Part shown: positions 13,216-64,000 of the stretch, piece by piece | Numbering within the stretch: position 1 is the first letter of the stretch | Layout of the letters: every line of letters starts with the position of its first letter | Assembly: GCF_044324875.1 (NCBI RefSeq) | Contig: NZ_CP172185.1 | Reading direction: 5' to 3' (one strand) | DNA: 64,000 nt | Source: Escherichia coli | GTDB lineage: Bacteria; Pseudomonadota; Gammaproteobacteria; Enterobacterales; Enterobacteriaceae | Made by a program: the position numbers and the translations under genes | The notes under the pieces: generated by a model | Database searches by the model: none | The model's input: the letters and a program-made list of their open reading frames with translations, nothing else | Told to the model about the DNA's origin: nothing

Positions 13216-13451
13216 TTTTATGGATCACCTTTCTGATTGATTTCATATTGGCGAGGTGACGGGAGTTAAGTAGAATTGCTGCGGGTGCTTGAGGCTATCT
13301 GCCTCGGGCATGAACACCAACGGCAGATAGAGAAAAGCCCCAGTTAACATTATGCGTCCTGCAAGACGCTTAACATTAATCTGAGGCAGAATCTATGTCT
13401 AGCAAATGTAGGTTAGCCTCTTACGTGCCGAAAGGCAAGGAGAAGCAGGCT

Positions 13452-35474: not shown

Positions 35475-35659
35475 ATCGATCGCAGTTTGGCATTCGAATC
35501 GATCATGATTTGGCATCCATCTCCGATCACAGTTTGGCATCACAATCGATCACGATTTGGCATGCTTCCGATCATTGATTGGCATCCTGCCAGTCACTCC
35601 GGGAATTAACTCTTTTCACCACAGTCTCCATTGCCGTGTTTAAACCAGTGGAGACGTCA

Positions 35660-37225: not shown

Positions 37226-37241
37226 CAGAAGGAACAACAGT

Positions 37242-37997
37242 ATGAGTGATAACCTGTTAAACAAACTGACCCAACTGAAACTCCCGGCGATGGCCGGGAG
37301 CCTGATACGGCAGCGGGAAACGCCTCAGACCTACGACGAACTGTCGTTCGAGGAAAGGCTGACGCTGCTGGTTGATGACGAGCTTCTGAGCAGGGAAAAC
37401 AGCCGTGTGGCACGGTTGAGAAAAAATGCCGGCCTGAAATACCAGGCAACACCGGAAGGGCTGCGCTATCCGGCCTCAAGAGGTCTGCGGGCTGAACAGA
37501 TGAGAGAACTGCTGAACGGCCACTACATAACCCACAGGAAAAACCTGCTGATAACCGGTCCGACAGGATGTGGCAAGAGCTGGATAGCCAATGCGCTGGG
37601 CGAACAGGCATGTCGACAGAAACACAGCGTCCGGTACTGTAGAACCGGGCGATTACTGGAACAACTGGCTCAGGGACGTGTTGATGGCAGCTGGCTGAAA
37701 TATCTGAAACAGTTGCAAAAAATACAGGTTCTAATCCTGGACGATCTGGGGCTGGAACAGTTAAGTAACGCCCAGTGTAATGACCTTCTGGAGCTCATAG
37801 AGGATCGTTACGGACAAAGCAGCACGATAGTGGTAAGCCAGTTCCCGGTAGATAAATGGCATGGTCTGATGGAGAACCCAACAACAGCAGATGCCATCCT
37901 GGACAGACTGGTACATAACTCACACCGAGTGGTCCTTCAGGGAGAGTCACTGAGGAAAAATCCCCCGGTAGTGGAAAGCAGCGAAAAAACGCGTTAA
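37242..37997 (+). CDS. istB: IS21-family ATP-binding helper IstB
   Basis: MSDNLLNKLTQLKLPAMAGSL...LITGPTGCGKSWIANALG (Walker A)...LILDDLG (Walker B). Confidence 0.85.
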   Translation: MSDNLLNKLTQLKLPAMAGSLIRQRETPQTYDELSFEERLTLLVDDELLSRENSRVARLRKNAGLKYQATPEGLRYPASRGLRAEQMRELLNGHYITHRKNLLITGPTGCGKSWIANALGEQACRQKHSVRYCRTGRLLEQLAQGRVDGSWLKYLKQLQKIQVLILDDLGLEQLSNAQCNDLLELIEDRYGQSSTIVVSQFPVDKWHGLMENPTTADAILDRLVHNSHRVVLQGESLRKNPPVVESSEKTR

Positions 37998-38096
37998 AAA
38001 GCGGTAGAAAAAGTTAAGTTCCCGGTTGATCGAATGGATGCGAATCGCTGATCGGACTTCGATGCCAATCCGTGATCGAATAGAGCGGAATACGCA

Positions 38097-40219
38097 TACC
38101 GGGCGATGTCATTGAAATCTGTGATGATGACTATGCCGGTATCAGCACCGGTGGTCGTGTGCTGGCGGTGAACAGCCAGACCCGGACGCTGACGCTCGAC
38201 CGTGAAATCACGCTGCCATCCTCCGGTACCACGCTGATAAGCCTGGTTGACGGAAGTGGCAATCCGGTCAGCGTGGAGGTTCAGTCCGTCACCGACGGCG
38301 TGAAGGTAAAAGTGAGCCGGGTTCCTGACGGCGTTGCCGAGTACAGCGTGTGGGGGCTGAAGCTGCCGACGCTGCGCCAGCGCCTGTTCCGCTGCGTGAG
38401 TATCCGTGAGAACGACGACGGCACGTATGCCATCACTGCCGTGCAGCATGTACCGGAAAAAGAGGGCATCGTGGATAACGGGGCACACTTTGACGGTGAC
38501 CAGAGCGGCACGGTGAATGGTGTCACGCCGCCAGCAGTGCAGCACCTGACTGTCGAAGTCACCGCAGACAGCGGGGAGTATCAGGTACTGGCCCGCTGGG
38601 ACACGCCGAAGGTGGTGAAAGGCGTGAGTTTCATGCTTCGCCTGACCGTGGCAGCGGATGACGGCAGTGAGCGGCTGGTCAGCACGGCCCGGACGACGGA
38701 AACCACATACCGCTTCAGGCAGCTGGCGCCGGGGAACTACAGGCTGACAGTCCGGGCAGTAAATGCCCGGGGGCAGCAGGGAGACCCGGCGTCGGTATCG
38801 TTCCGGATTGCCGCACCGGCAGCGCCGTCGCGGATTGAGCTGACGCCGGGCTATTTTCAGATAACCGCCACGCCGCATCTTGCCGTTTATGATCCGACGG
38901 TGCAGTTTGAGTTCTGGTTCTCGGAAAAGCGGATTACCGATATCAGGCAGGTTGAAACCACAGCCCGTTATCTTGGTACCGGAAGTCAGTGGCTTGTCTC
39001 CGGCCAGAATATTAAACCTGGCCATGATTATTACTTTTATATCCGCAGTGTTAACACTGTCGGTAAATCGGCATTCGTGGAGGCAGTCGGTCGGGCGAGT
39101 AATGATCCTGCCGGTTACCTTAATTTTTTCAGGGGGGCGATAAATAAAACGCATCTGGGACGGGAGATCAATGAACGCATTGATGCCTCTGCACGGCGCA
39201 CTGAAGTTGAGCAACTGGAGAATGCGATTAACCGCGAAATGACGCAGCTGGAGAATGCGATTAACCGCGAAATGACGCAGCTGGAGAAAGATGTGAGGCA
39301 GCGTGCGGAGCGTGATATCGCAGAGGTGACGAAAAAAATCACGGCGTCTGAAAACAGCATAACGGAACTGGTGGCGAAAAAGAGCGGTGAACAGTCGCTG
39401 GCCATTGCGAAAGTCGACAGGAAAGTTGACAGCGTGAGCAGTGAAATCCGGCAGACAGTAAGCAGGAGCACGGAGGAGAACAGCCGACAGATAGCGCAGG
39501 TCAGGCAGTATGTTGATGATAAAAGTGCGCAAATAAGTACTGTTGTGGCGAAAAAGAGCGGTGAACAGTCAATGGCCATTGCGGAAGTTGACAGAAAAGT
39601 TGACAGGATGGGCAGCGAAATCCGGCAGACAGTAAGCAGGAGCACGGAGGAGAACAGCCGACAGATAGCGCAGATCAGACAGTATGTTGATGATAAGGGA
39701 AGTCAGATCAAACAGAGCACGGATAAAAAACTGGGATCCTGGAATGCCAGCATTGAGCAGATACAGAAAGTTCAGGAGGACACGCGCCGGAACCTGAACA
39801 GCATGTGGGCTGTGAAGCTGCAGCAGACACGGGATGGACGTCTCTATATTGCAGGTATTGGTGCCGGAATCGAAAATACGTCTGACGGAATTCAGAGTCA
39901 GATCCTGATGCAGGCAGATCGTATTGCGATGATTAACCCGGAAAATGGCAATACAACACCTTTGTTTGTGGCTCAGGGTGATCAGCTGTTCATGAATGAT
40001 GTTTTCATGAAAAAACTGACCGTGGATTTTGCCAGAGTGACGGGAGATATCCGGTCAGATAATTTTCATTCCGGTAGTCCGGGGTGGCGTTTATCAAGAA
40101 ACGGCAGCCTTGAAATTAACTCAGGAAGGCCCGGCGCAGGCCGCCTGTTTTTCAATGGCGAGCGAATCGACGTATATGACGATAACAATGTGTTAAGAGT
40201 ACGACTGGGGAGACTGTAA
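38097..40219 (+). pseudogene. J: Host specificity protein J, C-terminal fragment (distal tip diverges from lambda and carries tandem duplications)
   Basis: Continues the lambda-J-like sequence [43 protein letters not shown]. Track ORF 38159..40219. Confidence 0.85.
39214..39718 (+). repeat. Tandem duplications inside the J distal region: 2 x 33 bp and 2 x about 174 bp
   Basis: CTGGAGAATGCGATTAACCGCGAAATGACGCAG twice ([11 protein letters not shown] x2). A larger unit starting GTGGCGAAAAAGAGCGGTGAACAGTC repeats at about 39371 and 39545 with about 90 percent identity. Confidence 0.7.
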
Positions 40220-41483: not shown

Positions 41484-42812
41484 ATGGCGGCTGTAAAAAT
41501 TTCAGGCGTGCTCAGGGACGGAACCGGAAAACCGGTACCGGGATGCATTATTGAGCTGAAAGCGAAGAGAACCAGCGAGACAGTCATCGCCACGACAGTG
41601 GCTTATGGCATGCCGGAAGAGACGGGGAGTTACAGTATGGATGTGGAGCCAGGAATATACAGGGTGACACTCAATACAGAAGGTTACCGTCCTTCGTATG
41701 TGGGAGATATCGTGGTCAGGGAGGATTCTTCACCGGGAACACTGAATAAATTTCTGATGGAGATGGAAGATGCTCCTTATTATCCGAAGGCGTTGTCAGA
41801 GCTGGAGGCTGTGGTGCAGTCCATACTGCACAGAGCAGAGTCCGCGGCATCTGAGGCGGAGGAAGCCCGGAAGCGAGCAGCATCTGCCCGGGGACCACGA
41901 GGAGAGAAAGGGGATACCGGCGCTCGTGGTGAAAGAGGCATTACCGGGCCACAGGGGCCAAAAGGTGAAACAGGAGCACGTGGCCCGGCAGGACCACAGG
42001 GACCAAAAGGTGAAACAGGTGAACGCGGTCCGGCAGGTCCACAGGGACCAAAGGGCGATACAGGTGAACGCGGCCCGGCAGGTCCACAGGGACCAAAAGG
42101 TGAAACAGGTGCACGTGGTCCGGAAGGTCCACAGGGAGCAAAAGGTGAAACAGGTGAACGCGGCCCGGCAGGTCCACAGGGAGCAAAGGGCGAAACAGGT
42201 GCACGTGGTCCGGAAGGCCCTCAGGGTCTGAAGGGAGAAAAGGGTGAGCGAGGAGAAAAAGGCCCTAAGGGGGATAAAGGAGATCCGGGAGGTCCACAGG
42301 GACCAAAAGGTGAAACAGGTGAACGTGGCCCGGCAGGTCCACAGGGACCAAAAGGTGAAACAGGTGAACGTGGCCCGGCAGGTCCACAGGGACCAAAGGG
42401 CGATACAGGTGAACGCGGTCCGGCAGGTCCACAGGGGCCAAGAGGGTATACAGGTGAACGCGGGCCGACAGGTCTACAGGGGCCAAGAGGGTATACAGGT
42501 GAACGCGGGCCGGCAGGTCCACAGGGGCCAAGAGGAGAAGCGGGGCGGCCAGCGAGCGTCGGAAGTGTTTATTCCGTGGGGTCTTATGTTCTGGGGATCA
42601 TAGAACGAAATCATGAGATAACAAATACCCGTCAAATACCCGGGTATCGTATCAGACAGGCCGTTATTGTGTCGTCGTCATCGGATAAACTTACAGATAT
42701 CCGCTTTTTATTTGGCAATCCTATGCTTGGTACATGGATGTTATGCACAACTAACATGGCGGTGAATAATATCAGTGGGACGATTTGGGGCCTGTTTCAG
42801 AGAATACTGTGA
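41484..42812 (+). CDS. stf: Side tail fibre protein with collagen-like Gly-X-Y repeats
   Basis: N-terminal tail-fibre domain ([63 protein letters not shown]) followed by about 70 G-X-Y triplets. Confidence 0.85.
41884..42546 (+). repeat. Collagen-like triplet repeat array (tandem about 45 bp units) within the tail fibre gene
   Basis: Repeated GGTCCACAGGGACCAAAAGGTGAAACAGGTGAACGCGGCCCGGCA-type units encoding [15 protein letters not shown]; explains the many antisense ORFs in the track here. Confidence 0.8.
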
Positions 42813-42950: not shown

Positions 42951-43032
42951 TAACCGGCTCATTTAAACCGTCTGGTCTGTTTCCTCCGGCTCTACAAAAA
43001 TAATGTCCATCATTTTTAATGGACACTATCGT

Positions 43033-43680
43033 ATGAAACACCGGACCTGGATCACTGAAGCTTTACGTCTTCACTTTGAAGAACATTTACCCCGGGTTGT
43101 GGCCGGGCGTCGCCTGGGTGTACCAAAATCAACAGTTTGTAGTATGTTCGTGCGCTTTCGGAGAGCTGGCCTTTCGTGGCCTTTGCCCGCAGGCATGTCG
43201 GAGCAGGAACTTGATGCCTGCCTTTACGGACAATTTTCCACGGTACCAGTCGTACGTCCTGAAAGCACCGTTATATCCGAAGCCCCCGTGGTAAAAAAAC
43301 GTCCCCGGCGGCCCAACTTCCCTTATGAGTTTAAAATCGCCTTAGTGGAGCAGTCACTGCAGCCCGGAGCCTGTGTGGCGCAGATCGCCCGGGAAAACGG
43401 AATCAACGATAACCTGCTCTTCAACTGGCGCCATCAATACCGGAAAGGTGGCCTGCTGCCTTCCGGAAAAAATATGCCGGCACTGCTTCCCGTGACGTTA
43501 ACGCCGGAGCCGGATAATAAAATCCCGGCCCCCGCACAGGAACCAGAGCAGATAAATACACCGTCCGACAGTCTGTGTTGTGAGCTGGTTCTGCCGGCCG
43601 GAACTCTCAGGCTTAAAGGTAAACTGACGCCGGCGTTATTACAGACACTTATCCGCGAAATAAAAGGGAGCAGCCACTGA
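43033..43680 (+). CDS. tnpA: IS66-family accessory protein TnpA (orf1)
   Basis: Internal Met of track ORF 43003..43680; HTH-like N-terminus. Confidence 0.7.
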   Translation: MKHRTWITEALRLHFEEHLPRVVAGRRLGVPKSTVCSMFVRFRRAGLSWPLPAGMSEQELDACLYGQFSTVPVVRPESTVISEAPVVKKRPRRPNFPYEFKIALVEQSLQPGACVAQIARENGINDNLLFNWRHQYRKGGLLPSGKNMPALLPVTLTPEPDNKIPAPAQEPEQINTPSDSLCCELVLPAGTLRLKGKLTPALLQTLIREIKGSSH

Positions 43681-44027
43681 TGATATCTCTCCCTGCAGGT
43701 TCGCGTATCTGGCTGGTTGCAGGTATCACCGATATGCGAAATGGCTTTAACGGCCTGGCATCAAAAGTTCAGAACGTCCTGAAGGATGACCCGTTCTCCG
43801 GACACCTGTTCATCTTCCGCGGACGCCGGGGTGACCAGATAAAAGTGTTGTGGGCTGACAGTGACGGACTGTGCCTCTTCACCAAACGCCTGGAGCGGGG
43901 CCGCTTCGTCTGGCCAGTCACCCGTGACGGCAAGGTGCACCTTACTCCGGCTCAGTTATCCATGCTTCTTGAAGGTATCAACTGGAAGCACCCGAAACGA
44001 ACGGAACGCGCTGGAATCCGCATATAA
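43680..44027 (+). CDS. tnpB: IS66-family TnpB (orf2)
   Basis: 115 aa; MISLPAGSRIWLVAGITDMRNGFNGLASKVQNVLKDDPFSGHLFIFRGRRGDQIKVLWAD is the typical IS66 Orf2. Confidence 0.85.
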   Translation: MISLPAGSRIWLVAGITDMRNGFNGLASKVQNVLKDDPFSGHLFIFRGRRGDQIKVLWADSDGLCLFTKRLERGRFVWPVTRDGKVHLTPAQLSMLLEGINWKHPKRTERAGIRI

Positions 44028-44046
44028 CCCGTTGTAAAGTGAGGAT

Positions 44047-45618
44047 ATGGACACCTCACTTGCTCATGAGAACGCCCGCCTGCGGGCACTGTTGCAGACG
44101 CAACAGGACACCATCCGCCAGATGGCTGAATACAACCGCCTGCTCTCACAGCGGGTGGCGGCTTATGCTTCCGAAATCAACCGGCTGAAGGCGCTGGTTG
44201 CGAAACTGCAACGTATGCAGTTCGGTAAAAGCTCAGAAAAACTTCGTGCAAAAACCGAACGGCAGATACAGGAAGCACAGGAGCGAATCAGCGCACTTCA
44301 GGAAGAAATGGCGGAAACGCTGGGTGAGCAATATGACCCGGTACTGCCATCCGCCCTGCGCCAGTCTTCAGCCCGTAAACCGTTACCGGCCTCACTTCCC
44401 CGTGAAACCCGGGTTATCCGGCCGGAAGAGGAATGCTGTCCTGCCTGTGGTGGTGAACTCAGTTCTCTGGGATGTGATGTGTCAGAGCAACTGGAGCTTA
44501 TCAGCAGCGCCTTTAAGGTTATCGAAACACAACGTCCGAAACAGGCCTGTTGCCGGTGCGACCATATCGTGCAGGCACCAGTACCTTCAAAACCCATTGC
44601 ACGCAGTTATGCCGGAGCGGGGCTTCTGGCCCATGTTGTCACCGGGAAATATGCAGACCATCTGCCGTTATACCGCCAGTCAGAAATATACCGTCGTCAG
44701 GGAGTGGAGCTGAGCCGTGCCACACTGGGGCGCTGGACAGGTGCTGTTGCTGAACTGCTGGAGCCGCTGTATGACGTCCTGCGCCAGTATGTGCTGATGC
44801 CCGGTAAAGTCCATGCTGATGATATCCCCGTCCCGGTCCAGGAGCCGGGCAGCGGTAAAACCCGGACAGCCCGGCTGTGGGTCTACGTCCGTGATGACCG
44901 TAACGCCGGTTCACAGATGCCCCCGGCGGTCTGGTTCGCGTACAGTCCGGACCGGAAAGGTATCCATCCACAAAATCACCTGGCCGGTTACAGCGGTGTG
45001 CTTCAGGCCGATGCTTACGGTGGTTACCGGGCGTTATACGAATCCGGCAGAATAACGGAAGCCGCGTGTATGGCTCATGCCCGGAGAAAAATCCACGATG
45101 TGCATGCAAGAGCGCCCACCTACATCACCACGGAAGCCCTGCAGCGTATCGGTGAACTGTATGCCATCGAGGCAGAGGTCCGGGGCTGTTCAGCAGAACA
45201 GCGTCTGGCGGCAAGAAAAGCCAGAGCCGCGCCACTGATGCAGTCACTGTATGACTGGATACAGCAACAGATGAAAACACTGTCGCGTCACTCAGATACG
45301 GCAAAAGCGTTCGCATACCTGCTGAAACAGTGGGATGCACTGAACGTGTACTGCAGTAATGGCTGGGTGGAAATCGACAACAACATCGCAGAGAACGCCT
45401 TACGGGGAGTGGCCGTAGGCCGGAAAAACTGGATGTTCGCGGGTTCCGACAGCGGTGGTGAACATGCGGCGGTGTTGTACTCGCTGATCGGCACATGCCG
45501 TCTGAACAATGTGGAGCCAGAAAAGTGGCTGCGTTACGTCATTGAACATATCCAGGACTGGCCGGCAAACCGGGTACGCGATCTGTTGCCCTGGAAAGTT
45601 GATCTGAGCTCTCAGTAA
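44047..45618 (+). CDS. tnpC: IS66-family transposase TnpC (orf3)
   Basis: 523 aa with N-terminal coiled coil, Cys cluster CPACGG...CCRCDH, and DDE-type core. Confidence 0.85.
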
Positions 45619-46805: not shown

Positions 46806-47167
46806 AATTCACCACAGCTATAAATTATAAAGAAAACCGCAGCATGTCGTATGCAAGAACGTGCTGCAGCTGGCTGGTTAACTTTCGATAGTGCGAGTAT
46901 TGAATGATTTCCAGCCGTTACCGATTTTATATAACTGCAGTGGAATTATTCAACACAGGCAAAACGGAATAAGCTGAGAAAAAAGCGTACTTTCCCAATC
47001 TGGGGCAAATCACGTCTGAATGACACCTGACAACAGATGGTGGCCTCAAGAAGGCTTGGAATATTCTTCTTTAATGTTATGTAAATTATTGATTTTTCGT
47101 GTACGATTTTAAGACATTTATTCCAAGAAAAATTTTTAACTCTTTGATTTTTCGACTCTGTATCATC

Positions 47168-47228
47168 GGTCTCGAAAACCGGAGTAGGGGCAACTCTACC
47201 GGGGGTTCAAATCCCCCTCTCTCCGCCA
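47168..47228 (+). repeat. attR: partial 3' copy of tRNA-Ser with the host-type variable arm
   Basis: GGTCTCGAAAACCGGAGTAGGGGCAACTCTACCGGGGGTTCAAATCCCCCTCTCTCCGCCA; lacks the tRNA 5' half. Confidence 0.75.
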
Positions 47229-47775
47229 CTTTATCAATGACTTATCTCCCGACTTCCCGCCTTGCTTTTCCTAAACAGAACAATCGTAGAATATTCTTGA
47301 AGGGTTAGATCGTCACTGTTTTCTGTTCGATACTGTGACATTCAGCACTTGATTCGCTATGGATCTGACAGGAAGGTTTCGAGCGAAAATCTGCAATTAT
47401 TCAGTCGTTTTCTTATCGGTCACCATTATTCTTTTAGACATTGATCCTACAAAGCTGCCGCAAAGTTGGTGGTGGGAACTGAAGTTGCGTAGAGAAGTGG
47501 TCAATAATTGAGCAAAAAAAGGAACGCGGCCGTCAGATTAAAGCCGCGGGACAAAGTCCATAATTTCCAAGAGTTGTTGAATTTCCCAGCTTTTTTGAAA
47601 GCCTTCGTATCATACTAACAAGTAAAAAAGGTTTAAATACCAAAATTAACCTATATTTCTGGTTAGCTTTACCATGACAGATGACTTGCTCCTGGAGACA
47701 TTGGCGCAGCCAGTCTGTATTGGTGAGTTGTGTATTTATTGTTCGCCGTTTTCTCAGTTTTTTCTACAGACATAA

Positions 47776-47815
47776 TAAAAAAGACACGTCTCAAGCATGA
47801 GCGTGTCTGAGTTTG
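47776..47815 (-). terminator. Rho-independent terminator downstream of zinT
   Basis: AGACACG...CGTGTCT hairpin, followed on the minus strand by TTTTTTATT. Confidence 0.5.
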
Positions 47816-47895
47816 TCTTATTTATTTGTCTTGGTAAATTATTGTCGTTACTACCAGGCACTGTTCTGTTAAATAATTGAATCAGCGAAAAAAAA

Positions 47896-48546
47896 TCAAT
47901 GAGACATCATTTCCTCGACCACTTCTTCGCTACTCAACTGATAGGGATAATACGTTGGCCAGTTTTCCATTTCATTTAATAAAGATTGCTGTGAATCATT
48001 ACCCATAAAAATGTGAAAATGAGATGATTTTCGTGGTGCAATTATATGATCGCTAAATTGAATATATTTAGGGGCTTTGCTTTCAGGATCTTTACATTCG
48101 AATAAATAACGAACGCCTTTCTTACCTGATTTATAGGTGAGTATTTTGTATCCATCGTAATCATATTTACAGGATGTTGTTTCATTATTTCTATGGAATT
48201 CAACAATGCCGTCCTCAATGCCAATCATCTCGATATCTGTCACATAACCTTTGCGATAATAATCTTTAATTTCAGCAAATGTTTTGGTTTTATCTGCATC
48301 CGCTTTCTTCTGAAAGACGGGGTCAAGTTTGCCACTTTGCAGTAAAGGATAAACGGATTGCCATACTCCATCCCAGTCACTTAGCGTTCGGTTTTGTACA
48401 TTGGCATCATCAAAAACACCATTAGCAGCTTTTTGTTCGACCTCTGTTAAGGGTTTGCCGTGTGAGTGATGACCATGCGAAAAGGCAGGAGCGCTAACAA
48501 TAAAGACACCTAAAGCAACAGCCAGTTTATGAAGACGAATCGCCAA
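47896..48546 (-). CDS. zinT: Zinc/cadmium-binding periplasmic protein ZinT (YodA)
   Basis: 216 aa with signal peptide and His-rich [12 protein letters not shown]; recognised as ZinT. Confidence 0.9.
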
Positions 48547-48802
48547 AACAGTTTCCTCCAGAGTTAATGTATATAATGTGTAATGTTATATTGTAACATA
48601 TAACAAAATGCAACAACTCTTAGGAAACGAGTGCAAAGTTACCTCAGGTATATTTTCCTATCTTATTGAAATGACATAAATTATGTCGATGATTTGAGGT
48701 TGATGACAAACGAAACATAACCTGATGTGATCTGCGTAGGCCGGATAGGGCGCTCGCGCCGCATCCGGCAGGGATAACGCGTACTTTGTCGGTAATATGA
48801 AG

Positions 48803-49438
48803 TTATAGAGATAATTTGTTGTGAACCTGCTTGCGTAACCGGTTGAAAAGGGAAAGCAACTTCTTATACCGTAAGGCTAAAAGCAGTACCGCCAGCCCAG
48901 CGTAGATGAGTGGCTGCGGTGAAATAATCTTCACTGACCACAGATAATGTATTGGGGCCAGGATCGCGACAAGATAGACGAAATTATGCAACTGTTGCCA
49001 GTGCTTGCCGAGTTTTCGCTGCATCGCCTGGGTTGAAGTAAACGCTAAAGCAAGCAAAATAACCCAGCTGATAATTCCTAACGTTAAATAAGGCCGGGTA
49101 ATTAACTCCTTACCTAATAACGCCAGATTATTCACGCCCAGCTCCAGTAATGCGTAACTGGTTAAATGCAGTGTCGCCCAGGCAAAGCACCATAAGCCTA
49201 ACAGGCGGCGAGTGCGTATCAATAACGGCTGTTTTGCGTAGCGTGCCAGAGGTGTGATTAACAAGGTCGCCAGCAAAAATTTCAGTGCAGTGCGACCAGT
49301 AAAATGCTGAATATCTTTCACTGGATCGGCACCCAGTCCACCGTGATTGATCGCCCAGACCAGCCAGAGAAACGGCAACAATCCGGCAAGATGCAGGCAA
49401 ACTTTCATCCATGTCACCTGTTTTGCTGTCAGACGCAT
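48803..49438 (-). CDS. msrQ: Methionine sulfoxide reductase haem-binding subunit MsrQ (YedZ)
   Basis: 211 aa polytopic membrane protein immediately downstream of msrP. Confidence 0.9.
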
Positions 49439-50449
<1,011 letters not shown>

Positions 50450-50551
50450 TCACACTTTTTTGTCGTTAGCCAGCAAGAGCCGTTTACTGTTAATCTGTCA
50501 GGGAGTGTCCTCCCTAACAGTAGCAGAGATCTGCTTTTACATATTTATGCA

Positions 50552-50965
50552 TTAACTGCCACGATAGGTTGAATACCCATATTGGCTAAGTAATAAAGGC
50601 ACATGATAATGCTCGTTCACTTTATTAATATGAAATTCAACGGGGATCTCAGGGAAGAAACTTTCAAGATTTTGTTTCTTGAAATAGTCCCCGGTTTTAA
50701 ATACGACACGGTAATCGCCCGTAGTTGCAGTTTGCTCGGGCCACAGTGCCTTAATTCGTCCATCCTTATCTGTTTTGGCGGTATTAAGTTGTAACCAGCC
50801 GTTGTCCGCTTTCTTTTCAAGAGTGACTGTCACGTCGGCAGCGGGTTTTCCTGTTTGCTGGTTCAAAATGTGCACGCTAAGAATGTTTTGTTGTGCAGCA
50901 TAGACCAAAGAAGGTAATGAAAATGCAGCCGTTACTACGGAGAGTACTAAATAACGCTTTAACAT
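50552..50965 (-). CDS. hiuH: 5-hydroxyisourate hydrolase (transthyretin-like) HiuH
   Basis: 137 aa with signal peptide and C-terminal YRGS motif. Confidence 0.85.
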
Positions 50966-51097
50966 GTTTATATCCTTGTCATGTGAATGAGTTTTGAGGA
51001 TAGCGAAAAAGCGTCCAGGGTAACCTTACAGCAGCATTACAATTTTGTAATGAACCAGGCTGTTTCTATAACATATGATTTATGGCATATTATTTTC

Positions 51098-51769
51098 ATG
51101 AAGATTTTACTTATTGAAGATAATCAAAGGACCCAGGAGTGGGTAACGCAGGGGCTTTCCGAAGCGGGTTATGTCATTGATGCCGTTTCTGATGGCAGAG
51201 ATGGGCTTTATCTTGCGCTGAAGGATGATTATGCATTGATCATTCTGGATATTATGCTTCCGGGTATGGATGGCTGGCAGATCTTACAAACGTTAAGAAC
51301 AGCAAAGCAAACCCCTGTTATTTGCCTTACTGCAAGGGATTCTGTCGATGACAGAGTCAGAGGGCTGGACAGTGGAGCAAATGATTATCTGGTAAAACCT
51401 TTTTCATTTTCTGAGTTGCTGGCAAGGGTTCGGGCACAATTAAGGCAACATCATGCTTTGAATTCAACATTAGAAATCAGTGGCTTAAGAATGGACTCTG
51501 TTAGTCAAAGTGTGAGCAGGGACAATATCAGTATTACACTGACGCGCAAGGAGTTTCAGTTACTTTGGCTACTGGCCTCCAGAGCTGGCGAAATTATACC
51601 CAGAACGGTTATTGCGAGTGAAATTTGGGGAATCAACTTTGATAGTGATACCAATACGGTGGACGTCGCCATTCGCAGGCTCCGCGCAAAAGTTGATGAT
51701 CCTTTTCCTGAAAAGCTAATCGCCACAATCCGGGGGATGGGCTATTCATTCGTAGCGGTAAAAAAATAA
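51098..51769 (+). CDS. hprR: Two-component response regulator HprR (YedW), OmpR family
   Basis: Internal ATG at 51098 (MKILLIEDNQRTQEW) of track ORF 50987..51769; receiver plus winged-helix domains. Confidence 0.85.
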   Translation: MKILLIEDNQRTQEWVTQGLSEAGYVIDAVSDGRDGLYLALKDDYALIILDIMLPGMDGWQILQTLRTAKQTPVICLTARDSVDDRVRGLDSGANDYLVKPFSFSELLARVRAQLRQHHALNSTLEISGLRMDSVSQSVSRDNISITLTRKEFQLLWLLASRAGEIIPRTVIASEIWGINFDSDTNTVDVAIRRLRAKVDDPFPEKLIATIRGMGYSFVAVKK

Positions 51770-53127
51770 TGAAAAGATTATCTATAACCGTCCGTTTAAC
51801 CTTGCTTTTTATATTGGTGCTGTCTGTTGCTGGCGCTGGAATTGTCTGGACTCTCTATAATGGCCTGGCAAGTGAGTTGAAATGGCGCGATGATACAACA
51901 CTCATTAACCGGACAGCGCAGATCAAGCAGTTGTTAATTGATGGGGTAAATCCAGATACGTTACCTGTGTACTTTAACCGGATGATGGATGTTAGTCAGG
52001 ATATCTTGATCATTCATGGTGATAGCATCAACAAAATTGTTAACCGGACGAATGTCAGTGATGACATGTTAAATAACATACCTGCTACTGAGACAATCAG
52101 CGCAGCTGGCATTTACAGAAGCATTATTAATGATACAGAGATAGATGCTTTACGAATTAATATTGATGAAGTTTCGCCATCATTAACGGTTACTGTGGCT
52201 AAATTGGCTTCAGCCAGACATAACATGCTTGAACAGTATAAAATTAATAGCATTATAATTTGCATTGTCGCCATTATACTTTGTTCAGTATTAAGTCCGC
52301 TGTTAATCAGAACGGGGTTACGAGAGATCAAAAAGTTGAGTGGTGTAACGGAAGCGCTGAATTATAACGATAACCGGGAGCCTGTTGAGGTTAGCGCATT
52401 ACCGAGAGAACTAAAACCTCTTGGGCAGGCGTTGAATAAAATGCACCAAGCCTTAGTCAAAGATTTTGAACGCCTAAGTCAATTTGCTGACGATCTCGCT
52501 CATGAACTTAGAACGCCAATTAATGCATTACTGGGTCAGAATCAGGTTACGCTCAGTCAAACCAGAAGTATCGCTGAATATCAAAAAACAATTGCCGGAA
52601 ACATTGAAGAGCTGGAAAATATTTCGCGGTTAACAGAGAACATACTGTTTCTTGCCAGGGCAGATAAAAATAATGTTTTGGTGAAACTGGACTCGCTTTC
52701 TCTCAATAAGGAAGTCGAAAATTTGTTGGACTATCTTGAATACCTTTCAGACGAGAAAGAGATTTGCTTTAAGGTCGAGTGCAATCAGCAAATCTTTGCG
52801 GATAAAATTTTACTACAACGAATGTTATCGAATCTTATTGTTAACGCTATTCGATATTCGCCAGAAAAATCGCGCATTCTTATAACCAGTTTTCTTGATA
52901 CCAACGGCTCTCTTAATATTGATATCGCCAGCCCTGGTACGAAAATTAATGAGCATGAAAAACTCTTCCGTAGATTTTGGCGCGGAGATAATTCGCGTCA
53001 TTCCGTAGGTCAGGGACTTGGTCTTTCTTTAGTCAAAGCGATTGCCGAATTGCATGGGGGAAGTGCTACGTATCACTATCTCAATAAGCTTAATGTGTTC
53101 CGGATTACGTTACCGCAAAGAAATTAA
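51769..53127 (+). CDS. hprS: Sensor histidine kinase HprS (YedV)
   Basis: 452 aa with two TM segments, H-box (LAHELRTPINAL) and ATPase motifs. Confidence 0.9.
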   Translation: MKRLSITVRLTLLFILVLSVAGAGIVWTLYNGLASELKWRDDTTLINRTAQIKQLLIDGVNPDTLPVYFNRMMDVSQDILIIHGDSINKIVNRTNVSDDMLNNIPATETISAAGIYRSIINDTEIDALRINIDEVSPSLTVTVAKLASARHNMLEQYKINSIIICIVAIILCSVLSPLLIRTGLREIKKLSGVTEALNYNDNREPVEVSALPRELKPLGQALNKMHQALVKDFERLSQFADDLAHELRTPINALLGQNQVTLSQTRSIAEYQKTIAGNIEELENISRLTENILFLARADKNNVLVKLDSLSLNKEVENLLDYLEYLSDEKEICFKVECNQQIFADKILLQRMLSNLIVNAIRYSPEKSRILITSFLDTNGSLNIDIASPGTKINEHEKLFRRFWRGDNSRHSVGQGLGLSLVKAIAELHGGSATYHYLNKLNVFRITLPQRN

Positions 53128-53233
53128 CATAGGGCTTCAGTACGCCATAAATTAACCGTGAAAAACGCAGCCACGTCGTGAGTATTAACGTGGCTGCGAT
53201 TGATTATGCGCTTACATTACAATGTAACAGGGA

Positions 53234-54085
53234 TTAACTCGAGTAAGCGGCCAGCATTTCCTGCGCCGCCAGTTTACCCAACGCATTCGCTGCGAAAGGA
53301 CTGTCGCCGGTGAGAACTTTACGGTCCTTATGTACTCGCCCGGTGATGTCGTCATTAATAATGTTCATGCCCATTTTCTTCAGCTCTTCGCCGAAGTACC
53401 AGGTGAGATGACCCGGCATATAGCCTATCTCTGGCGTTTGTTTGTCTGCGGCGTCTGGGAATGCGCAAATGGAATAACCATTCAGTGGGTTATCGCCGTG
53501 GCGAAGTGCCAGAAAAGCCGCCGGACCGTGGCAAAGGGATATAACAAAACGGTCATTTTTGATTGCCCACTGTAAAGCGGCAGCCACGTCCTGGCTTTCT
53601 GGTAAACCAATAAGTGCGCCATGACCACCAGGAACAAAGATTGCTGCATATTCGCTGTCAGCGTTGAGGCTGGCGACAACATCCGCGAGTTTATTCGGAT
53701 TGCGGAACAACGATTTATGCTGCTCAAAGAATGGCATTACTTTTTCATCTTTGTGTGGCATAGCCCAGTATTCAAACTTGGTCATCAGACCGGAAATGGT
53801 CGCCACTTCGAATTCGAAACCTGCAGCATGGAGATGATACAACGGCAGCAACGTTTCAATCGGATGGTTACCGGTCGAAAACAGTTTGCCGTTATCGGTC
53901 GGCAAATAACGTTCGTCCGCGGCGATCACCAGAATTTTATGTTTACCACGATAAGGTTTTGGGTAGTCCACGCCATCAAGATCAGAGACAGGACTAGTAT
54001 ATTGGCTAAGCGAATATTCTGAAGGGAAGAATGCATTATCTTCAGCAATATCGACCTGCGGATTTTTACTTGTTTGAACAGTCAT
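53234..54085 (-). CDS. hchA: Hsp31 chaperone / glyoxalase III HchA
   Basis: 283 aa; MTVQTSKNPQVDIAEDNAFFPSEYSLSQYTSPVSDLDGVDYPKPYRGKHKILVIAADERYL recognised as HchA. Confidence 0.9.
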   Translation of the reverse strand: MTVQTSKNPQVDIAEDNAFFPSEYSLSQYTSPVSDLDGVDYPKPYRGKHKILVIAADERYLPTDNGKLFSTGNHPIETLLPLYHLHAAGFEFEVATISGLMTKFEYWAMPHKDEKVMPFFEQHKSLFRNPNKLADVVASLNADSEYAAIFVPGGHGALIGLPESQDVAAALQWAIKNDRFVISLCHGPAAFLALRHGDNPLNGYSICAFPDAADKQTPEIGYMPGHLTWYFGEELKKMGMNIINDDITGRVHKDRKVLTGDSPFAANALGKLAAQEMLAAYSS

Positions 54086-54676
54086 AGTGTATTCCTTATT
54101 GTTGCTTAGTTAGGGTAGTCACTATATTTGCGACTGAGCTGGTCGCTATTTTTAACCAGGCTGGAAAATTGAGTCAATATATCGAAAGCGGTAGTCGGCG
54201 GGTGTAAGTATGTAATGATGATGCTGCACTGGTGTTGAATATTATTCACGCCAAATTTTCCTTATTGAGCAACGTCGTCGCAAGTGGCCTCAATGATTTT
54301 AGACCATTATCAGAGGTCCGGGGCGGCAGGGAGAGATTTAGTGCTGTGGAATATTGTGGTGCTGATGAATATTTATATCCCGGATTGGTAGAGAAAAAGC
54401 TTTTTCCATGCACTTTTTTTGCAAATATTTCTGTATGGGAGGCGGTTTTGTTGCAGATTAATTCATAAAGAAATGCATTTGGGTGTTGGCTGGAAGAGTC
54501 GCGGGTAGATGTTATTGTGCCAGCAGGGGCAGGGTAAGGTACTGTATCGATATGCTTTGGCAATTGCATGTGCCGCAGAGGGAGATGAAATGCCAATAAA
54601 AAAGCCTGAGTTCGATGAGGGACGAACTCAGGCTAGTGTTAACTTTTACAGTAACACGCCGCGGCGCGTTGGCTGA

Positions 54677-55870
54677 TTAGAACTGGTAGACTAAGCCCAC
54701 AGCAACGATATCATCGGTAGCGATGCCGTTTGCTTTGTAGAAGTCGTCGTCGTTGTCCAGCAGGTTGATTTTGTAATCAACGTAGGTGGACATGTTTTTG
54801 TTGAAGTAGTAAGTCGCACCAATATCAACGTATTTAACCAGATCTTTATTGGTGTAACGTGGGTCGCCGTTGCCGTCATGAGCCCAACCACCTAAATCCT
54901 TACCTTTAGATTGCAGGTAAGCGATGGACGGGCGTAGGCCGAAGTCGAACTGATACTGAGCAACAACTTCAAAGTTTTGGGTTTTGTTCGCAATACCACC
55001 TCTGTCAATGTCGTTATTGTCTTTTCCGCTGCCATATGCAGTCATATTACGTGTTTCTGCATACATTGCCGCTAAATAGACATTATTCGCATCATATTTA
55101 GCACCGACTGTCCATGCTTCAGCTGTTTCACCACCAGCATATTTATTCGAGCGTTGCTCACCTAAACCAGTAGCACGTTGGTTATCAGTACGGTCAGAGT
55201 TTGAATATGCAGCCCCGAGGCTTAACCCGAAGTCAAAGTCATAGGAAGTGGACATACCGAAACCGTCACCATTTTCTTTAGACAGTTTACGATTATTACC
55301 ATTACCAGAACCTTCTTGATCCCAAAGCCCACCCGATCCTTCATTATTACCCTGATATTGCAGAGCAAAGTTCAGGCCATCGACCTGACCAAAGAAGCCA
55401 TTGTTACGGTAGGTTGCAACACCATTAGCACGACCGTTCAGGAAGTTGTCGGCACCAGCATAGGTATCGCCACCAAATTCTGGCAGCATATCGGTCCATG
55501 CTTCGATGTCATATACGACACCGTAGTTACGACCATAGTCGAAAGTACCATTCTGACCAAAGCCTAAACCTGCAAATGCCAGACGCGTTGCGGTATTACC
55601 TTTGTCGCTTTCAGGACCGTTTGCGCCAATGTTAAATTCCCACTGACCATAACCAGTGAATTGGTCAGCGATCTGAGTTTCACCTTTGAAACCGATACGG
55701 GCATATGACATGTCGCCATCGCTGCCAGCATCATCAGAGAAGTAGTGCAGGCCCGCTACTTTTCCGTACAAATCCAGTTTATTACCATCTTTATTATAGA
55801 CTTCAGCCGCATTTGCTGCGCCAGCAACTAATAACGCCGGGACCAGCATTGCCAGAACTTTTCTTTTCAT
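54677..55870 (-). CDS. yedS: OmpC-family outer membrane porin YedS, apparently intact
   Basis: Internal start [37 protein letters not shown] (signal peptide) of track ORF 54677..55900; C-terminal porin motif ending F. Confidence 0.8.
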
Positions 55871-56498
55871 TATGTATTCCCTTGTGATTATAATCTTCAT
55901 GAATATATCAATAAGTGCCGTTATCCAAAAAAAAGCACATTTGGATACTATTCTATGAAGTTCATTTTATTTTAAAGATTACATGTAACAAATATATTTA
56001 AAAGATTTCAAAATGTTTCTAATCTATTTAATATAATTCAGAATTATGAATTCTAAATATAAATATTCATGAAAATTATAAATGTATATCAATATGTTAT
56101 GAGTTGAGCGGAAACATAGGGGGTATCAATGATTGTTGCGCCAAACGGCTGGTGTGATCACGCGCACATTAATGAAGGCATAAAAAAAGCCGGCATCATG
56201 CCGGCCCAAAAAAAATAAACAAGACGATAAAAGGCTAATAACGGAAGCATCATGACACAGAATAATAAAAAGGTATAATTGTAATCAGTGCTAATATATT
56301 GATTGAATGAATTAATAAAGCCGATATCAAAGATAAATAAAATCGCTCAAAACGATTTTTCCTGTATTCACTGCCGTTGCGCAAAAATTATCTATTTGTT
56401 CAAAAAATGATTGAGTCTTGACTGGCTCATCCAATGTGGAAAAATGTGACTTTTATCACATAATAGTACTAAGTCTGAATTTTCCGGGTTATCTCAAA

Positions 56499-56801
56499 AT
56501 GGAATACGGTTCGACAAAGATGGAAGAGAGACTCTCTCGCAGCCCTGGCGGCAAATTGGCTTTGTGGGCTTTCTATACATGGTGTGGCTATTTCGTCTGG
56601 GCAATGGCGCGTTACATCTGGGTGATGAGCCGGATCCCTGATGCCCCGGTGTCGGGATTTGAAAGCGATTTAGGCTCTACCGCGGGAAAGTGGTTAGGGG
56701 CACTGGTTGGCTTTTTATTTATGGCTCTGGTCGGGGCATTGTTAGGCAGCATTGCCTGGTACACCCGACCTCGTCCCGCACGTAGCAGACGCTATGAATA
56801 A
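56499..56801 (+). CDS. yedR: Inner membrane protein YedR
   Basis: Internal ATG (MEYGSTKMEERL...) of track ORF 56418..56801; two hydrophobic segments. Start is uncertain. Confidence 0.6.
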   Translation: MEYGSTKMEERLSRSPGGKLALWAFYTWCGYFVWAMARYIWVMSRIPDAPVSGFESDLGSTAGKWLGALVGFLFMALVGALLGSIAWYTRPRPARSRRYE

Positions 56802-56840
56802 AAACTGCTAAGGTTGCGATTCTTTGGCAACGGAGCGCGT

Positions 56841-57535
56841 ATGGACTTACAACACTGGCAGGCACAGTTCGAAAACTGGTTGAAAAACCATCATCAGCAC
56901 CAGGACGCGGCCCATGACGTATGTCATTTTCGCCGCGTCTGGGCTACGGCACAGAAGCTGGCGGCAGATGACGATGTCGATTGCTGGTGATTTTAACCGC
57001 CTGTTATTTTCACGATATTGTGAGCCTGGCGAAAAATCATCCGCAACGGCAGCGTTCTTCAATCCTGGCGGCAGAAGAGACGCGTCGCCTGCTCCGTGAA
57101 GAGTTCGTGCAATTTCCGGCGGAGAAAATTGAGGCCGTTTGTCATGCCATTGCCGCGCACAGTTTCAGCGCGCAAATCGCCCCCTTAACAACGGAAGCTA
57201 AAATCGTCCAGGATGCGGATCGGCTGGAAGCCCTGGGGGCGATTGGCCTGGCGCGCGTGTTTGCCGTTTCAGGGGCATTGGGCGTGGCGCTGTTTGATGG
57301 TGAAGATCCGTTCGCACAGCATCGCCCGCTTGATGATAAACGCTACGCGCTGGATCATTTCCAGACTAAGTTGCTGAAGCTACCGCAAACCATGCAAACC
57401 GCAAGAGGCAAGCAGCTGGCGCAGCACAACGCGCAATTTTTAGTCGAGTTTATGGCGAAGCTCAGTGCCGAACTGGCGGGGGAGAATGAAGGTGTCGATC
57501 ACAAGGTGATAGATGCGTTTTCACCCGCGGGCTGA
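56841..57535 (+). pseudogene. yedJ: HD-domain phosphohydrolase YedJ with apparent frameshift near 56980
   Basis: ATG at 56841 encodes the HD motif ([47 protein letters not shown]) then hits TGA at 56988. The rest of the HD domain continues in the +2 frame (track ORF 56981..57535). Frames overlap by 1 nt, consistent with a single-base deletion or sequencing error. Confidence 0.65.
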
Positions 57536-57601
57536 GCGCGTGGCCCTAAATGGCTGTAATTATGTTAACCTGTCGGCCATCTCAGATGGCCGGTTAAATC
57601 T

Positions 57602-59020
57602 ATGCAGGAAAATATATCAGTAACCGATTCATACAGCACCGGGAATGCCGCACAGGCAATGCTGGAGAAACTGCTGCAAATTTATGATGTTAAAACGCTG
57701 GTGGCGCAGCTTAATGGTGTGGGTGAGAATCACTGGAGCGCGGCAATTTTAAAACGTGCACTGGCGAATGACTCGGCATGGCACCGTTTAAGTGAGAAAG
57801 AGTTCGCCCATCTGCAAACGTTGTTACCCAAACCACCGGCACATCATCCGCATTATGCGTTTCGCTTTATCGATCTATTCGCCGGAATTGGCGGCATTCG
57901 TCGCGGTTTTGAATCGATTGGCGGACAGTGCGTCTTTACCAGCGAATGGAACAAACATGCGGTTCGCACTTATAAAGCCAACCATTATTGCGATCCGGCG
58001 ACGCATCATTTTAATGAAGATATCCGCGACATCACCCTCAGCCATAAAGAAGGCGTGAGTGATGAGGCGGCGGCGGAACATATTCGTCAACACATTCCTG
58101 AACACGATGTATTACTGGCGGGTTTTCCTTGTCAGCCATTTTCGCTGGCTGGCGTATCGAAAAAGAACTCGCTCGGGCGGGCGCACGGTTTTGCCTGCGA
58201 TACCCAGGGCACGCTGTTCTTTGATGTGGTGCGCATTATCGACGCGCGTCGTCCGGCGATGTTTGTGCTCGAAAACGTCAAAAACCTGAAAAGTCACGAT
58301 AAAGGAAAAACGTTCCGCATCATCATGCAGACGCTGGAGGAACTGGGCTATGACGTGGCTGATGCAGAAGATAACGGGCCGGACGATCCGAAAATCATCG
58401 ATGGTAAACATTTCCTGCCGCAGCACCGTGAACGCATCGTGCTGGTGGGGTTTCGTCGCGATCTGAATCTGAAAGCCGATTTTACTCTGCGTGATATCAG
58501 CAAATGTTTCCCTGCACAGCGAGTGACGCTGGCGCAGCTGCTGGACCCGATGGTCGAGGCGAAATATATCCTGACGCCGGTGCTGTGGAAGTACCTCTAT
58601 CGTTATGCGAAAAAACATCAGGCACGCGGTAACGGCTTCGGTTATGGAATGGTTTATCCGAACAATCCGCAAAGCGTCACGCGTACGCTGTCTGCTCGTT
58701 ATTACAAAGATGGCGCGGAAATTTTAATCGATCGCGGTTGGGATATGGCCACGGGTGAGAAAGACTTTGACGATCCGCTGAATCAGCAACATCGTCCACG
58801 TCGGTTAACGCCTCGGGAATGCGCGCGCTTAATGGGTTTTGAAGCGCCGGGAGAAGCGAAATTCCGCATTCCGGTTTCGGACACTCAGGCCTATCGCCAG
58901 TTCGGTAACTCGGTGGTCGTACCGGTCTTTGCCGCGGTGGCAAAACTGCTTGAGCCAAAAATCAAACAGGCGGTGGCGTTGCGTCAGCAAGAGGCACAAC
59001 ATGGCCGACGTTCACGATAA
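57602..59020 (+). CDS. dcm: DNA-cytosine methyltransferase Dcm
   Basis: 472 aa with C5-MTase motifs FAGIGG and [11 protein letters not shown]. Confidence 0.9.
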
Positions 59021-59471
59021 GGCCACTCGCAGCAAAAATATGCGCGCGATTGCCACGCGTGATACGGCGATTGAGAAGCGCCTCGCCAGTCTGTTAACCG
59101 GGCTGGGCCTGGCGTTTCGCGTTCAGGACGCCAGTCTGCCCGGACGCCCGGATTTTGTCGTTGATGAATATCGCTGCGTGATATTTACCCACGGCTGCTT
59201 CTGGCACCATCATCACTGCTATTTGTTTAAAGTGCCTGCGACTCGAACCGAGTTCTGGCTGGAGAAGATAGGTAAAAATGTTGAACGCGATCGCCGCGAT
59301 ATCAGTCGCTTGCAGGAACTCGGCTGGCGCGTATTGATTGTCTGGGAGTGTGCGTTACGTGGGCGCGAGAAGCTGACGGATGAAGCGCTTAGCGAGCGTC
59401 TGGAAGAGTGGATCTGCGGCGAAGGTGCCAGCGCGCAGATCGACACGCAGGGGATTCATTTACTCGCTTGA
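59001..59471 (+). CDS. vsr: Very-short-patch repair endonuclease Vsr
   Basis: ATG at 59001 overlapping the dcm 3' end; [32 protein letters not shown]...[12 protein letters not shown]. Confidence 0.9.
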
Positions 59472-60380
59472 TGCGTCCTGAATAACGGGCGCAACTACGG
59501 GTTTTGCCGGGAAGAGATATTTTCCCAACGTGACCAGTAACACCGCGAAGACAATCACGCCGAGCGCCAGCCATTCAATCTTCGACAGCGTCTCTCCGCC
59601 CAGTCCCGTACCCAGCAAGACCGCGACCACCGGGTTAACGTAGGCGTAGCTGGTGGCGAGAGCCGGACTGACGTTGCGGATTAAATACATATAAGCGTTA
59701 ATGGCGATAATTGAACCAAACAGCGCCAGATAGCCGACCGCAAGGAAGCCTGAAAGGGAAGGGAGCGCCGTCAGTTTTTCACCCGCAATCATCGACGCGA
59801 TCATTAACACCACGCCTGCTGCCAGCATCTCAATCGCACCCGCCATCATCCCTACAGGTAAGGTAATGCGCGAGCCATAAACCGAGCCAAACGCCCAGCT
59901 AATCGAGCCGATTAAAATCAGAATCGCGCCCCACGGATTGCCGCTTAAATTTCCACCGCTATAGAGCATGATGATTCCGGCAAGCCCAATGGCGATACCC
60001 ACCCATTCCAGTTTGCGCGTTTTAATGCCAAACAGGCGGCTGAAGCACAGGGTAAAGAGGGGCACGGTTGCAACCACTACGGCGGCGATGCCGGAAGGAA
60101 CATTTTGATGTTCGGCAACCGTCACCATGCCATTACCGACAGCCAGCAATAACAGGCCAATCAGCGCGGCATTGAGCAGCGGACGTAGCGGGGGGAGTTT
60201 GTGTCCGCGCAGTAGCAAAAATGCCAGCAATAAAATACCGGCTGCCAGGAATCGAACGCCCGCCATCATTAACGGCGGCCAGCTTTCCACGCCAATCCGA
60301 ATGACAAAATAGGTTGAGCCCCAAATGATATACAACGCAAACAACGCGCCAAAAAGCGGTAACAACTGGCGGAAACGCAT
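59460..60380 (-). CDS. yedA: EamA/DMT-family transporter YedA
   Basis: 306 aa polytopic membrane protein with the duplicated EamA pattern. Confidence 0.85.
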   Translation of the reverse strand: MRFRQLLPLFGALFALYIIWGSTYFVIRIGVESWPPLMMAGVRFLAAGILLLAFLLLRGHKLPPLRPLLNAALIGLLLLAVGNGMVTVAEHQNVPSGIAAVVVATVPLFTLCFSRLFGIKTRKLEWVGIAIGLAGIIMLYSGGNLSGNPWGAILILIGSISWAFGSVYGSRITLPVGMMAGAIEMLAAGVVLMIASMIAGEKLTALPSLSGFLAVGYLALFGSIIAINAYMYLIRNVSPALATSYAYVNPVVAVLLGTGLGGETLSKIEWLALGVIVFAVLLVTLGKYLFPAKPVVAPVIQDASSE

Positions 60381-60552
60381 AATCCCTCACGGTGGAAATA
60401 AAAAGGTGGTTCATAGTAAACGTGAAAATCATTCTGCTGGCGAGAGATATAATTGCACTTGATTGTTAAAAAAATGTTGACCTGTGAAGCAAGTATCAGA
60501 GCTACCGTTTTTGCTTCATACTTACACCCTTCAACAATAAAAATGAGAGGGA

Positions 60553-61470
60553 ATGCTTTTGGCCGGGAGTAGTTTACTGACGTTGCTCGATGATATCGCC
60601 ACACTGCTGGACGATATCTCCGTGATGGGCAAACTGGCGGCGAAGAAAACCGCCGGTGTATTAGGGGATGACTTATCGCTCAATGCGCAACAAGTTTCAG
60701 GCGTGCGGGCCAACCGGGAACTTCCCGTGGTCTGGGGCGTGGCGAAAGGATCGCTGATCAATAAAGTGATTCTGGTGCCGCTGGCGCTGATCATCAGTGC
60801 GTTTATCCCGTGGGCGATTACGCCACTGTTGATGATTGGCGGCGCGTTTCTCTGCTTTGAAGGGGTAGAGAAAGTGCTGCATATGCTGGAGGCGCGTAAA
60901 CATAAAGAAGATCCGGCGCAGAGTCAGCAGCGTCTGGAGAAGCTGGCGGCGCAGGATCCGCTGAAGTTTGAAAAAGACAAAATAAAAGGGGCGATTCGTA
61001 CCGATTTTATATTGTCTGCGGAAATCGTCGCCATCACGCTGGGGATTGTGGCAGAAGCGCCGTTGCTTAATCAGGTGCTGGTGCTTTCAGGCATCGCGCT
61101 GGTAGTGACCGTGGGCGTCTATGGTCTGGTAGGGGTTATCGTTAAGATTGATGACCTGGGGTATTGGCTGGCGGAAAAATCCAGCGCGCTGATGCAGGCA
61201 TTAGGTAAAGGGTTATTGATCATTGCGCCCTGGTTGATGAAGGCGTTATCGATTGTCGGCACGCTGGCGATGTTCCTCGTCGGCGGCGGGATTGTGGTAC
61301 ATGGTATTGCGCCGCTGCATCACGCCATTGAACATTTCGCCGGGCAGCAAAGTGCAGTGGTGGCGATGATATTACCGACTGTTTTAAATCTGATTCTTGG
61401 TTTTATCATCGGCGGCATCGTGGTGCTGGGAGTGAAAGCCGTAGCGAAAATGCGCGGTCAGGCACATTAA
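60553..61470 (+). CDS. yedI: DUF808 inner membrane protein YedI
   Basis: 305 aa membrane protein; start is an alternative codon per track. Confidence 0.8.
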
Positions 61471-61548
61471 TACTCGCACTGGCTATTATGCAAAATTCGC
61501 CATCTTAAACTAAGGTGAACAAGTTTCACTCGAAAAAAGGAGGCGAGT

Positions 61549-61731
61549 ATGAGCTTTATGGTTAGTGAGGAAGTTACGGTTAAAGAGGGCGGCCCGCGGA
61601 TGATTGTCACCGGATACTCCAGCGGTATGGTTGAGTGTCGTTGGTATGACGGTTACGGGGTCAAGCGGGAAGCTTTTCATGAAACCGAGCTTGTTCCAGG
61701 GGAGGGGAGTCGTCCTGCGGAAGAAGTTTGA
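61549..61731 (+). CDS. yodC: Small protein YodC
   Basis: 60 aa; GGAGG RBS upstream; MSFMVSEEVTVKEGGPRMIVTGYSSGMVECRWYDGYGVKREAFHETELV. Confidence 0.7.
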   Translation: MSFMVSEEVTVKEGGPRMIVTGYSSGMVECRWYDGYGVKREAFHETELVPGEGSRPAEEV

Positions 61732-61901
61732 AAGGGTATCATTAACACCAGGCCGGATCACATCCGGCCTGGTGTGCCAATGCCTGCAATGAATGATAGT
61801 CGCGTCTTATCATGCCACCATTATAAAATTATCGCTGTTTTGCGGTACGTTATCGCCGGGTTATGCCAGAATCATAAAAAAGCAGGTTGGGAGTCGTCAG
61901 G

Positions 61902-64000
<2,099 letters not shown>

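Follow-up and report, generated by a model that had tools for sequence, protein, structure and literature searches.

The yedJ locus and its neighbourhood

We analysed a 64,000-nucleotide stretch of Escherichia coli chromosomal DNA (contig NZ_CP172185.1), referred to below as the window, in which the gene yedJ is divided over two reading frames. The genes surrounding it are zinT, msrQP, hiuH, hprRS, hchA, a porin gene, rseX, drpB, yedJ itself, dcm, vsr, yedA, and yedI. The features of the locus are as follows.

54677-55900, minus strand: intact OmpC-like porin ORF (Porin_1, 477 bits), called ompC in a relative and located at the position of yedS
56182-56271, minus strand: rseX, Hfq-binding small RNA (95 bits), between the porin gene and drpB as in K-12
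56520-56801, plus strand: drpB (yedR), upstream of yedJ; annotation transferred by alignment from a close relative
56841-57535, plus strand: yedJ as a whole, very probably a pseudogene; 695 nt versus 696 nt in the intact allele, 99.9% identity to yedJ of NZ_AP022261.1
56841-56990, plus strand: yedJ 5' fragment; 47 native codons, two out-of-frame codons (Cys-Trp), and TGA; encodes H25, D26, and H29
56981-56982, plus strand: site of the 1-nt deletion, with an A absent between two T residues (GATATGCTG changed to GATTGCTG), from pairwise alignments to NZ_AP022261.1 and K-12
56987-57535, plus strand: yedJ 3' fragment in the other frame; 182-aa CDS called from the GTG at 56987; encodes H58-D59 and QDADRL
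57602-59020, plus strand: dcm, intact, 472 aa, 66 nt downstream of yedJ
59001-59471, plus strand: vsr, intact, 156 aa, overlapping the end of dcm; gene calls transferred by alignment

The gene yedS, whose position the porin ORF occupies, is a pseudogene in K-12.

An earlier note on this DNA had described an N-terminal ORF of 49 codons that ends at a TGA at 56988 and a continuation in the +2 frame from 56981, and all of these coordinates hold. The 5' ORF starts with the ATG at 56841 and comprises 49 sense codons (MDLQ...DDDVDCW) followed by the TGA at 56988-56990. The second ORF, which lies in the +2 frame relative to 56841, is open either from a TTG at 56981 (184 aa), an alternative start for the 3' fragment, or from the GTG at 56987 (182 aa), which overlaps the stop codon of the 5' ORF as GTGA; it ends with the stop at 57533-57535. 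The overlap of 1 nt reported earlier is correct for the point at which homology switches from one frame to the other, but not for the ORFs, which share 10 nt (56981-56990). The missing A belongs to the Met48 codon (ATG to -TG). The length of the indel is not a multiple of three, and the premature stop at 56988 is encountered two codons past the deletion. When an A is inserted after 56981, a single ORF of 231 aa is restored, as had been predicted, and its product is identical to YedJ of the closest complete genome, NZ_AP022261.1.

Mobile elements elsewhere in the window

Apart from yedJ, the window contains a lambdoid prophage (869-42812) that adjoins tRNA-Ser(CGA) (869-958). Its integrase is encoded on the minus strand (1011-2036), and we additionally found an exonuclease VIII-like gene, a Rha/Ash regulator, terminase, portal, tape measure, and L/K/I/J tail genes, as well as a collagen-repeat tail fibre (41484-42812). 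The tip-attachment gene J (34032-40219) is split into an N-terminal part (34032-35474) and a C-terminal part (38159-40219), between which lies an IS21-family element with an istA-like (35579-37225) and an istB-like gene (36999-37997). Because gene J is interrupted by this element, the prophage is probably defective. Rfam matches within the prophage comprise a C4 antisense RNA (5750-5837), isrK (5862-5938), DicF (6173-6224), and a sok antitoxin RNA (13283-13457), the last of which implies a hok/sok-type toxin locus. Just past the tail-fibre gene, an IS66-family element (43003-45618) carries an HTH_Tnp_1 ORF (43003-43680) and an IS66 DDE transposase (44047-45618).

Comparison with intact yedJ alleles

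A megablast search with window positions 56700-57700 as the query detected the locus in 5,367 of 5,426 complete RefSeq E. coli genomes. The top matches shared 99.8% identity with the query and exceeded it by one base. Compared with the best match, NZ_AP022261.1, the 1,001 nt contain two differences, namely a T for C at 56820 and the missing A between 56981 and 56982. Within yedJ, the single gap is the sole difference from the NZ_AP022261.1 allele, which is annotated as an intact CDS of 696 nt, and since the gene shows no other change relative to this intact allele, the event appears to be recent. Over 4 kb, the missing A is also the sole indel relative to the closest complete genome.

Alignment with K-12 MG1655, the check proposed in the earlier note, revealed 22 substitutions and the same lone indel in 1,295 nt. 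The K-12 gene is one ORF of 231 aa, and a two-frame arrangement was not seen in this reference. Both alignments locate the missing base, which had been suspected near 56980, as one A between 56981 and 56982. NZ_AP022261.1 and K-12 are thus relatives with one uninterrupted yedJ of 696 nt and 231 aa, and a single-ORF gene is present in K-12 and about 4,900 complete genomes. In a sample of 40 records spread down the ranking of matches, the 36 full-length ones had a yedJ of 692-696 nt without a pseudogene flag.

K-12 YedJ (b1962; PDB 3GW7) is encoded by the same gene, likewise located in the order drpB-yedJ-dcm-vsr. The two are 98.6% identical at the DNA level, and the restored window protein differs from 3GW7 at 3 residues. 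In contrast to the single 231-aa ORF of K-12, the window gene is one A short in codon 48 and falls into a 49-aa and a 182-aa part.

The deletion itself was found in none of the 5,426 complete RefSeq E. coli genomes: a query of 76 nt across the junction gave no match of at least 99% identity, and the best one, at 98.7%, corresponds to a one-base gap. Because none of these genomes carries it, the deletion marks one clone.

The deletion in independent assemblies

The earlier note had left open whether the frameshift is a genuine pseudogene mutation or a sequencing or assembly error. In case of an error, the A would be present in the organism and would have been dropped by the base caller or the assembler. 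Single-base indels are indeed the commonest assembly error, and the absence of the deletion from all complete RefSeq genomes fits with such an explanation. However, exact copies of the 49-aa and the 182-aa product are found on 132 and 131 public contigs, respectively (NCBI, ENA, and Logan in both cases), and the two have been deposited as SRB07811.1 and SRB07810.1 in this order. Moreover, four assembled loci that we fetched from three samples (GCA_002467655.1, SRR31122216, and SRR31139910) all contain a deletion-specific 29-mer that is absent from the loci of NZ_AP022261.1 and NZ_CP024862.1, while among the fetched loci the corresponding 30-mer of the intact allele occurs only in the intact relative NZ_AP022261.1. 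The deleted base was not part of a homopolymer either, as it was an A between two Ts and the nearest run, TTTT, lies 10 nt downstream. Finally, no gap and no more than 2 substitutions separate the window from the four carrier loci over 17 kb. For the 132-kb contig of GCA_002467655.1, the comparison extends over 17,014 nt and shows 2 substitutions and 0 gaps, which indicates that the window is from the same clone and that its assembly is not prone to indels.

At least three separate sources of the deletion allele agree, although the number of contigs may overstate the number of independent isolates: in about 117 index blocks the longest carrying contig is 20-50 kb (43 kb for the two that were read), and given these lengths many of the approximately 130 contigs may be from one project and represent the same clone. 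In view of the recurrence of the deletion in independent assemblies and of its position outside a homopolymer, we consider an error extremely unlikely and are confident that yedJ has become a pseudogene through a genuine 1-bp deletion, which is recent and specific to the clone.

The second difference from NZ_AP022261.1 noted above, at position 56820, is a private substitution of the window. The window has a T here, as opposed to a C in K-12, in NZ_AP022261.1, and in each of the four loci fetched from the frameshift clone. The change is located in the drpB-yedJ spacer, 21 nt upstream of the yedJ start, and makes up one of the 2 substitutions counted over 17 kb against the GCA_002467655.1 contig.

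Lineage of the clone

Among the locally closest complete genomes, RM14516 is O17:H18 and belongs to phylogroup D, while ESC818 (OgGp9:H18) groups with UMN026 and 042. One close genome, WP8-S18-ESBL-07, was compared at length and showed 99.95% identity to the window over 4 kb and 99.29% over 17 kb. We tentatively assign the clone to phylogroup D or a related group; the placement is tentative because WP8-S18-ESBL-07 is close only locally. An accession search retrieved no paper on the assemblies or runs that carry the allele.

A mosaic pattern is also apparent when window positions 46820-64000 are aligned with the complete genome that is closest at yedJ. The alignment has 1 substitution and 1 gap within 4 kb around yedJ, compared to 116 substitutions and 5 gap openings over the 17 kb, a distribution of similarity that suggests recombination tracts.

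Predicted consequences for the YedJ protein

Restored YedJ matches PDB 3GW7 ("Uncharacterized protein yedJ") with an E value of 1e-150 and the Pfam HD family (PF01966) with 60.7 bits over residues 29-131, which is above the gathering score. The 3' fragment alone still reaches 45.3 bits, covering profile positions 26-115 only, and the 49-aa 5' fragment gave no significant Pfam match.

A functional frame of reference is provided by Bacillus subtilis YpgQ (5DQV), to which YedJ is homologous over almost its full length (E value of 6.9e-20). According to a review of the HD superfamily, YpgQ is a homodimeric, Mn2+-dependent (d)NTP pyrophosphohydrolase in which the invariant residues H29, H58, D59, and D124 bind a catalytically essential mononuclear Mn and H25 lies near the active site (PMC8177086). 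YedJ has the H..H...HD...D pattern at nearly the same positions (H25, H29, H58, D59, and the equivalent of D124). In addition, the motifs HD..H..RV (H25, D26, H29), FHD (H58, D59), and QDADRL (124-129) are kept in the four distant PDB homologues 3DTO, 2PQ7, 3B57, and 2QGS. YpgQ is nevertheless a distant relative at the level of a paralogue, and the activity of E. coli YedJ is putative only; targeted literature searches found no enzymatic characterisation of the E. coli protein.

Unlike in YpgQ, the ligand set in the window is divided over two polypeptides, neither of which carries the complete H...HD...D series. H29 resides on the 49-aa fragment, and H58, D59, and the QDADRL aspartates on the 182-aa fragment. 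The H...HD motif that the earlier note assigned to the N-terminal piece is not complete there. This piece carries the conserved H25-D26, a dipeptide taken wrongly for the canonical dyad, and the first metal ligand His29, whereas the canonical dyad itself, H58-D59 (FHDIV), and the QDADRL aspartate are encoded downstream of the break.

The loss of the A of Met48 shifts the frame, such that translation from the normal start ends after 49 residues, while the remaining 182-184 codons stay open in the other frame and lack the first 47 residues. Based on these observations, we propose the following consequences. The break would part His29, together with the conserved His25 and Asp26, from the other ligands (His58, Asp59, and an aspartate of QDADRL). 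Ribosomes may to some extent re-initiate at the GTG within GTGA, but this would yield only the C-terminal piece deficient in a ligand. Because the break divides the metal ligands as judged by homology to YpgQ, neither fragment should be active and the function of YedJ should be lost; a loss of catalytic function is hence what we expect from this analysis.

Recoding and split-gene explanations

Two alternatives would allow the allele to retain some function. A GTGA-type overlap of stop and start codon is a classical arrangement for translational coupling. Termination at the TGA at 56988 might accordingly be coupled to re-initiation at the GTG at 56987, and the 49-aa and 182-aa products might together form an enzyme that is at least partly active; alternatively, the C-terminal fragment might keep a residual or altered activity. 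In line with this, the downstream ORF is intact and free of further mutations, which is, however, equally expected for a very recent pseudogene. We found no Shine-Dalgarno-like sequence before the restart codons and nothing that points to selection for keeping the split, and with the break the main fragment has lost a metal ligand. Overall, a functional split gene appears highly improbable.

The 10-nt overlap of the ORFs, together with the fact that the downstream frame is the one reached by a -1 shift, might also be taken as a sign of recoding, in which programmed -1 ribosomal frameshifting or transcriptional slippage would join the frames and full-length YedJ would still be made. Yet no slippery heptamer of the type X_XXY_YYZ is present anywhere in the 5' ORF, and no A or T run is found at the junction. 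The two-frame layout is also not conserved, given the single ORF in K-12 and about 4,900 complete genomes, and represents a derived state in one clone. We assign a next to negligible probability to recoding and retain loss of yedJ by a genuine frameshift as our interpretation.

Loss of yedJ in other E. coli genomes

Of the 5,367 complete genomes that gave a match, 454 (about 8%) covered less than 80% of yedJ, and the four listed among these 454 all lack the 5' part of the gene. As an example, we inspected AR_0015 (NZ_CP024862.1, 2504-4438), in which an IS1 element is located at the junction of a deletion. The lost DNA comprises the 5' end of hchA, the porin gene, rseX, drpB, and 257 nt from the start of yedJ, whereas dcm-vsr has been retained. 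Similar to the allele studied here, this one represents a yedJ gene inactivated in nature with dcm-vsr preserved, but it arose by an IS1-linked deletion rather than by a point frameshift. The class with a short yedJ (454 genomes, with AR_0015 as the one example examined) is an independent and much commoner yedJ-null state than the frameshift. Because about 8% of the complete genomes have such a short yedJ match, with the 5' end missing in those listed, loss of the gene is tolerated in nature. Further YedJ products with a truncation or a fusion have been recorded as well, e.g., a drpB-yedJ fusion of 252 aa.

Our targeted searches of the yedJ literature returned only its operon context, an unvalidated Dub-seq phage-resistance score, and a listing in a promoter screen. 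The Dub-seq score is the only phenotype that we found for yedJ; it was not validated and was ascribed to the neighbouring rseX (PMC7553319). Overall, the loss of yedJ is probably neutral or nearly so.

Position of the frameshift upstream of dcm and vsr

In K-12, drpB (yedR), yedJ, dcm, and vsr are on the same transcript according to SMRT-Cappable-seq (PMC6131387). One may speculate that the premature stop in yedJ could, in principle, exert polarity on dcm-vsr. We scanned the stretch that is left untranslated past the stop for the C-over-G bias of Rho utilisation sites and obtained C/G ratios of 0.46-1.35, with no clear C-rich, G-poor tract. A scan for the sigma-70 consensus located sites only upstream of drpB and none in yedJ or in the yedJ-dcm spacer; their total was not above the expectation from shuffled sequence.

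A further possibility is that the frameshift is adaptive rather than neutral, be it through the nucleotide pool, following loss of a YpgQ-like (d)NTP pyrophosphohydrolase, or through polarity on dcm-vsr. We regard this as very unlikely. If it acted through polarity, cytosine methylation, very-short-patch repair, the mutation rate, or phage and restriction behaviour could change in this phylogroup-D-like clone. Since yedJ shares its K-12 transcript with dcm-vsr, the clone would offer a natural test case for polarity on Dcm and Vsr, with no sign of an effect in the present data.

Significance of the frameshift allele

Overall, the finding is an ordinary lineage-specific pseudogene, formed by a frameshift in the gene of an HD-domain hydrolase that is dispensable and poorly characterised, and its importance is small. 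Public databases already contain the allele in the form of two split CDSs. With regard to annotation, yedJ of this clone is better recorded as a frameshifted pseudogene than as two "putative phosphohydrolase" CDSs, as is the case for SRB07810.1 and SRB07811.1. The 29-mer GACGATGTCGATTGCTGGTGATTTTAACC, which occurs in none of the 5,426 complete RefSeq E. coli genomes, can be used as a marker specific to the clone. Together with the IS1-associated deletion allele, the frameshift further indicates that E. coli can do without YedJ in nature.
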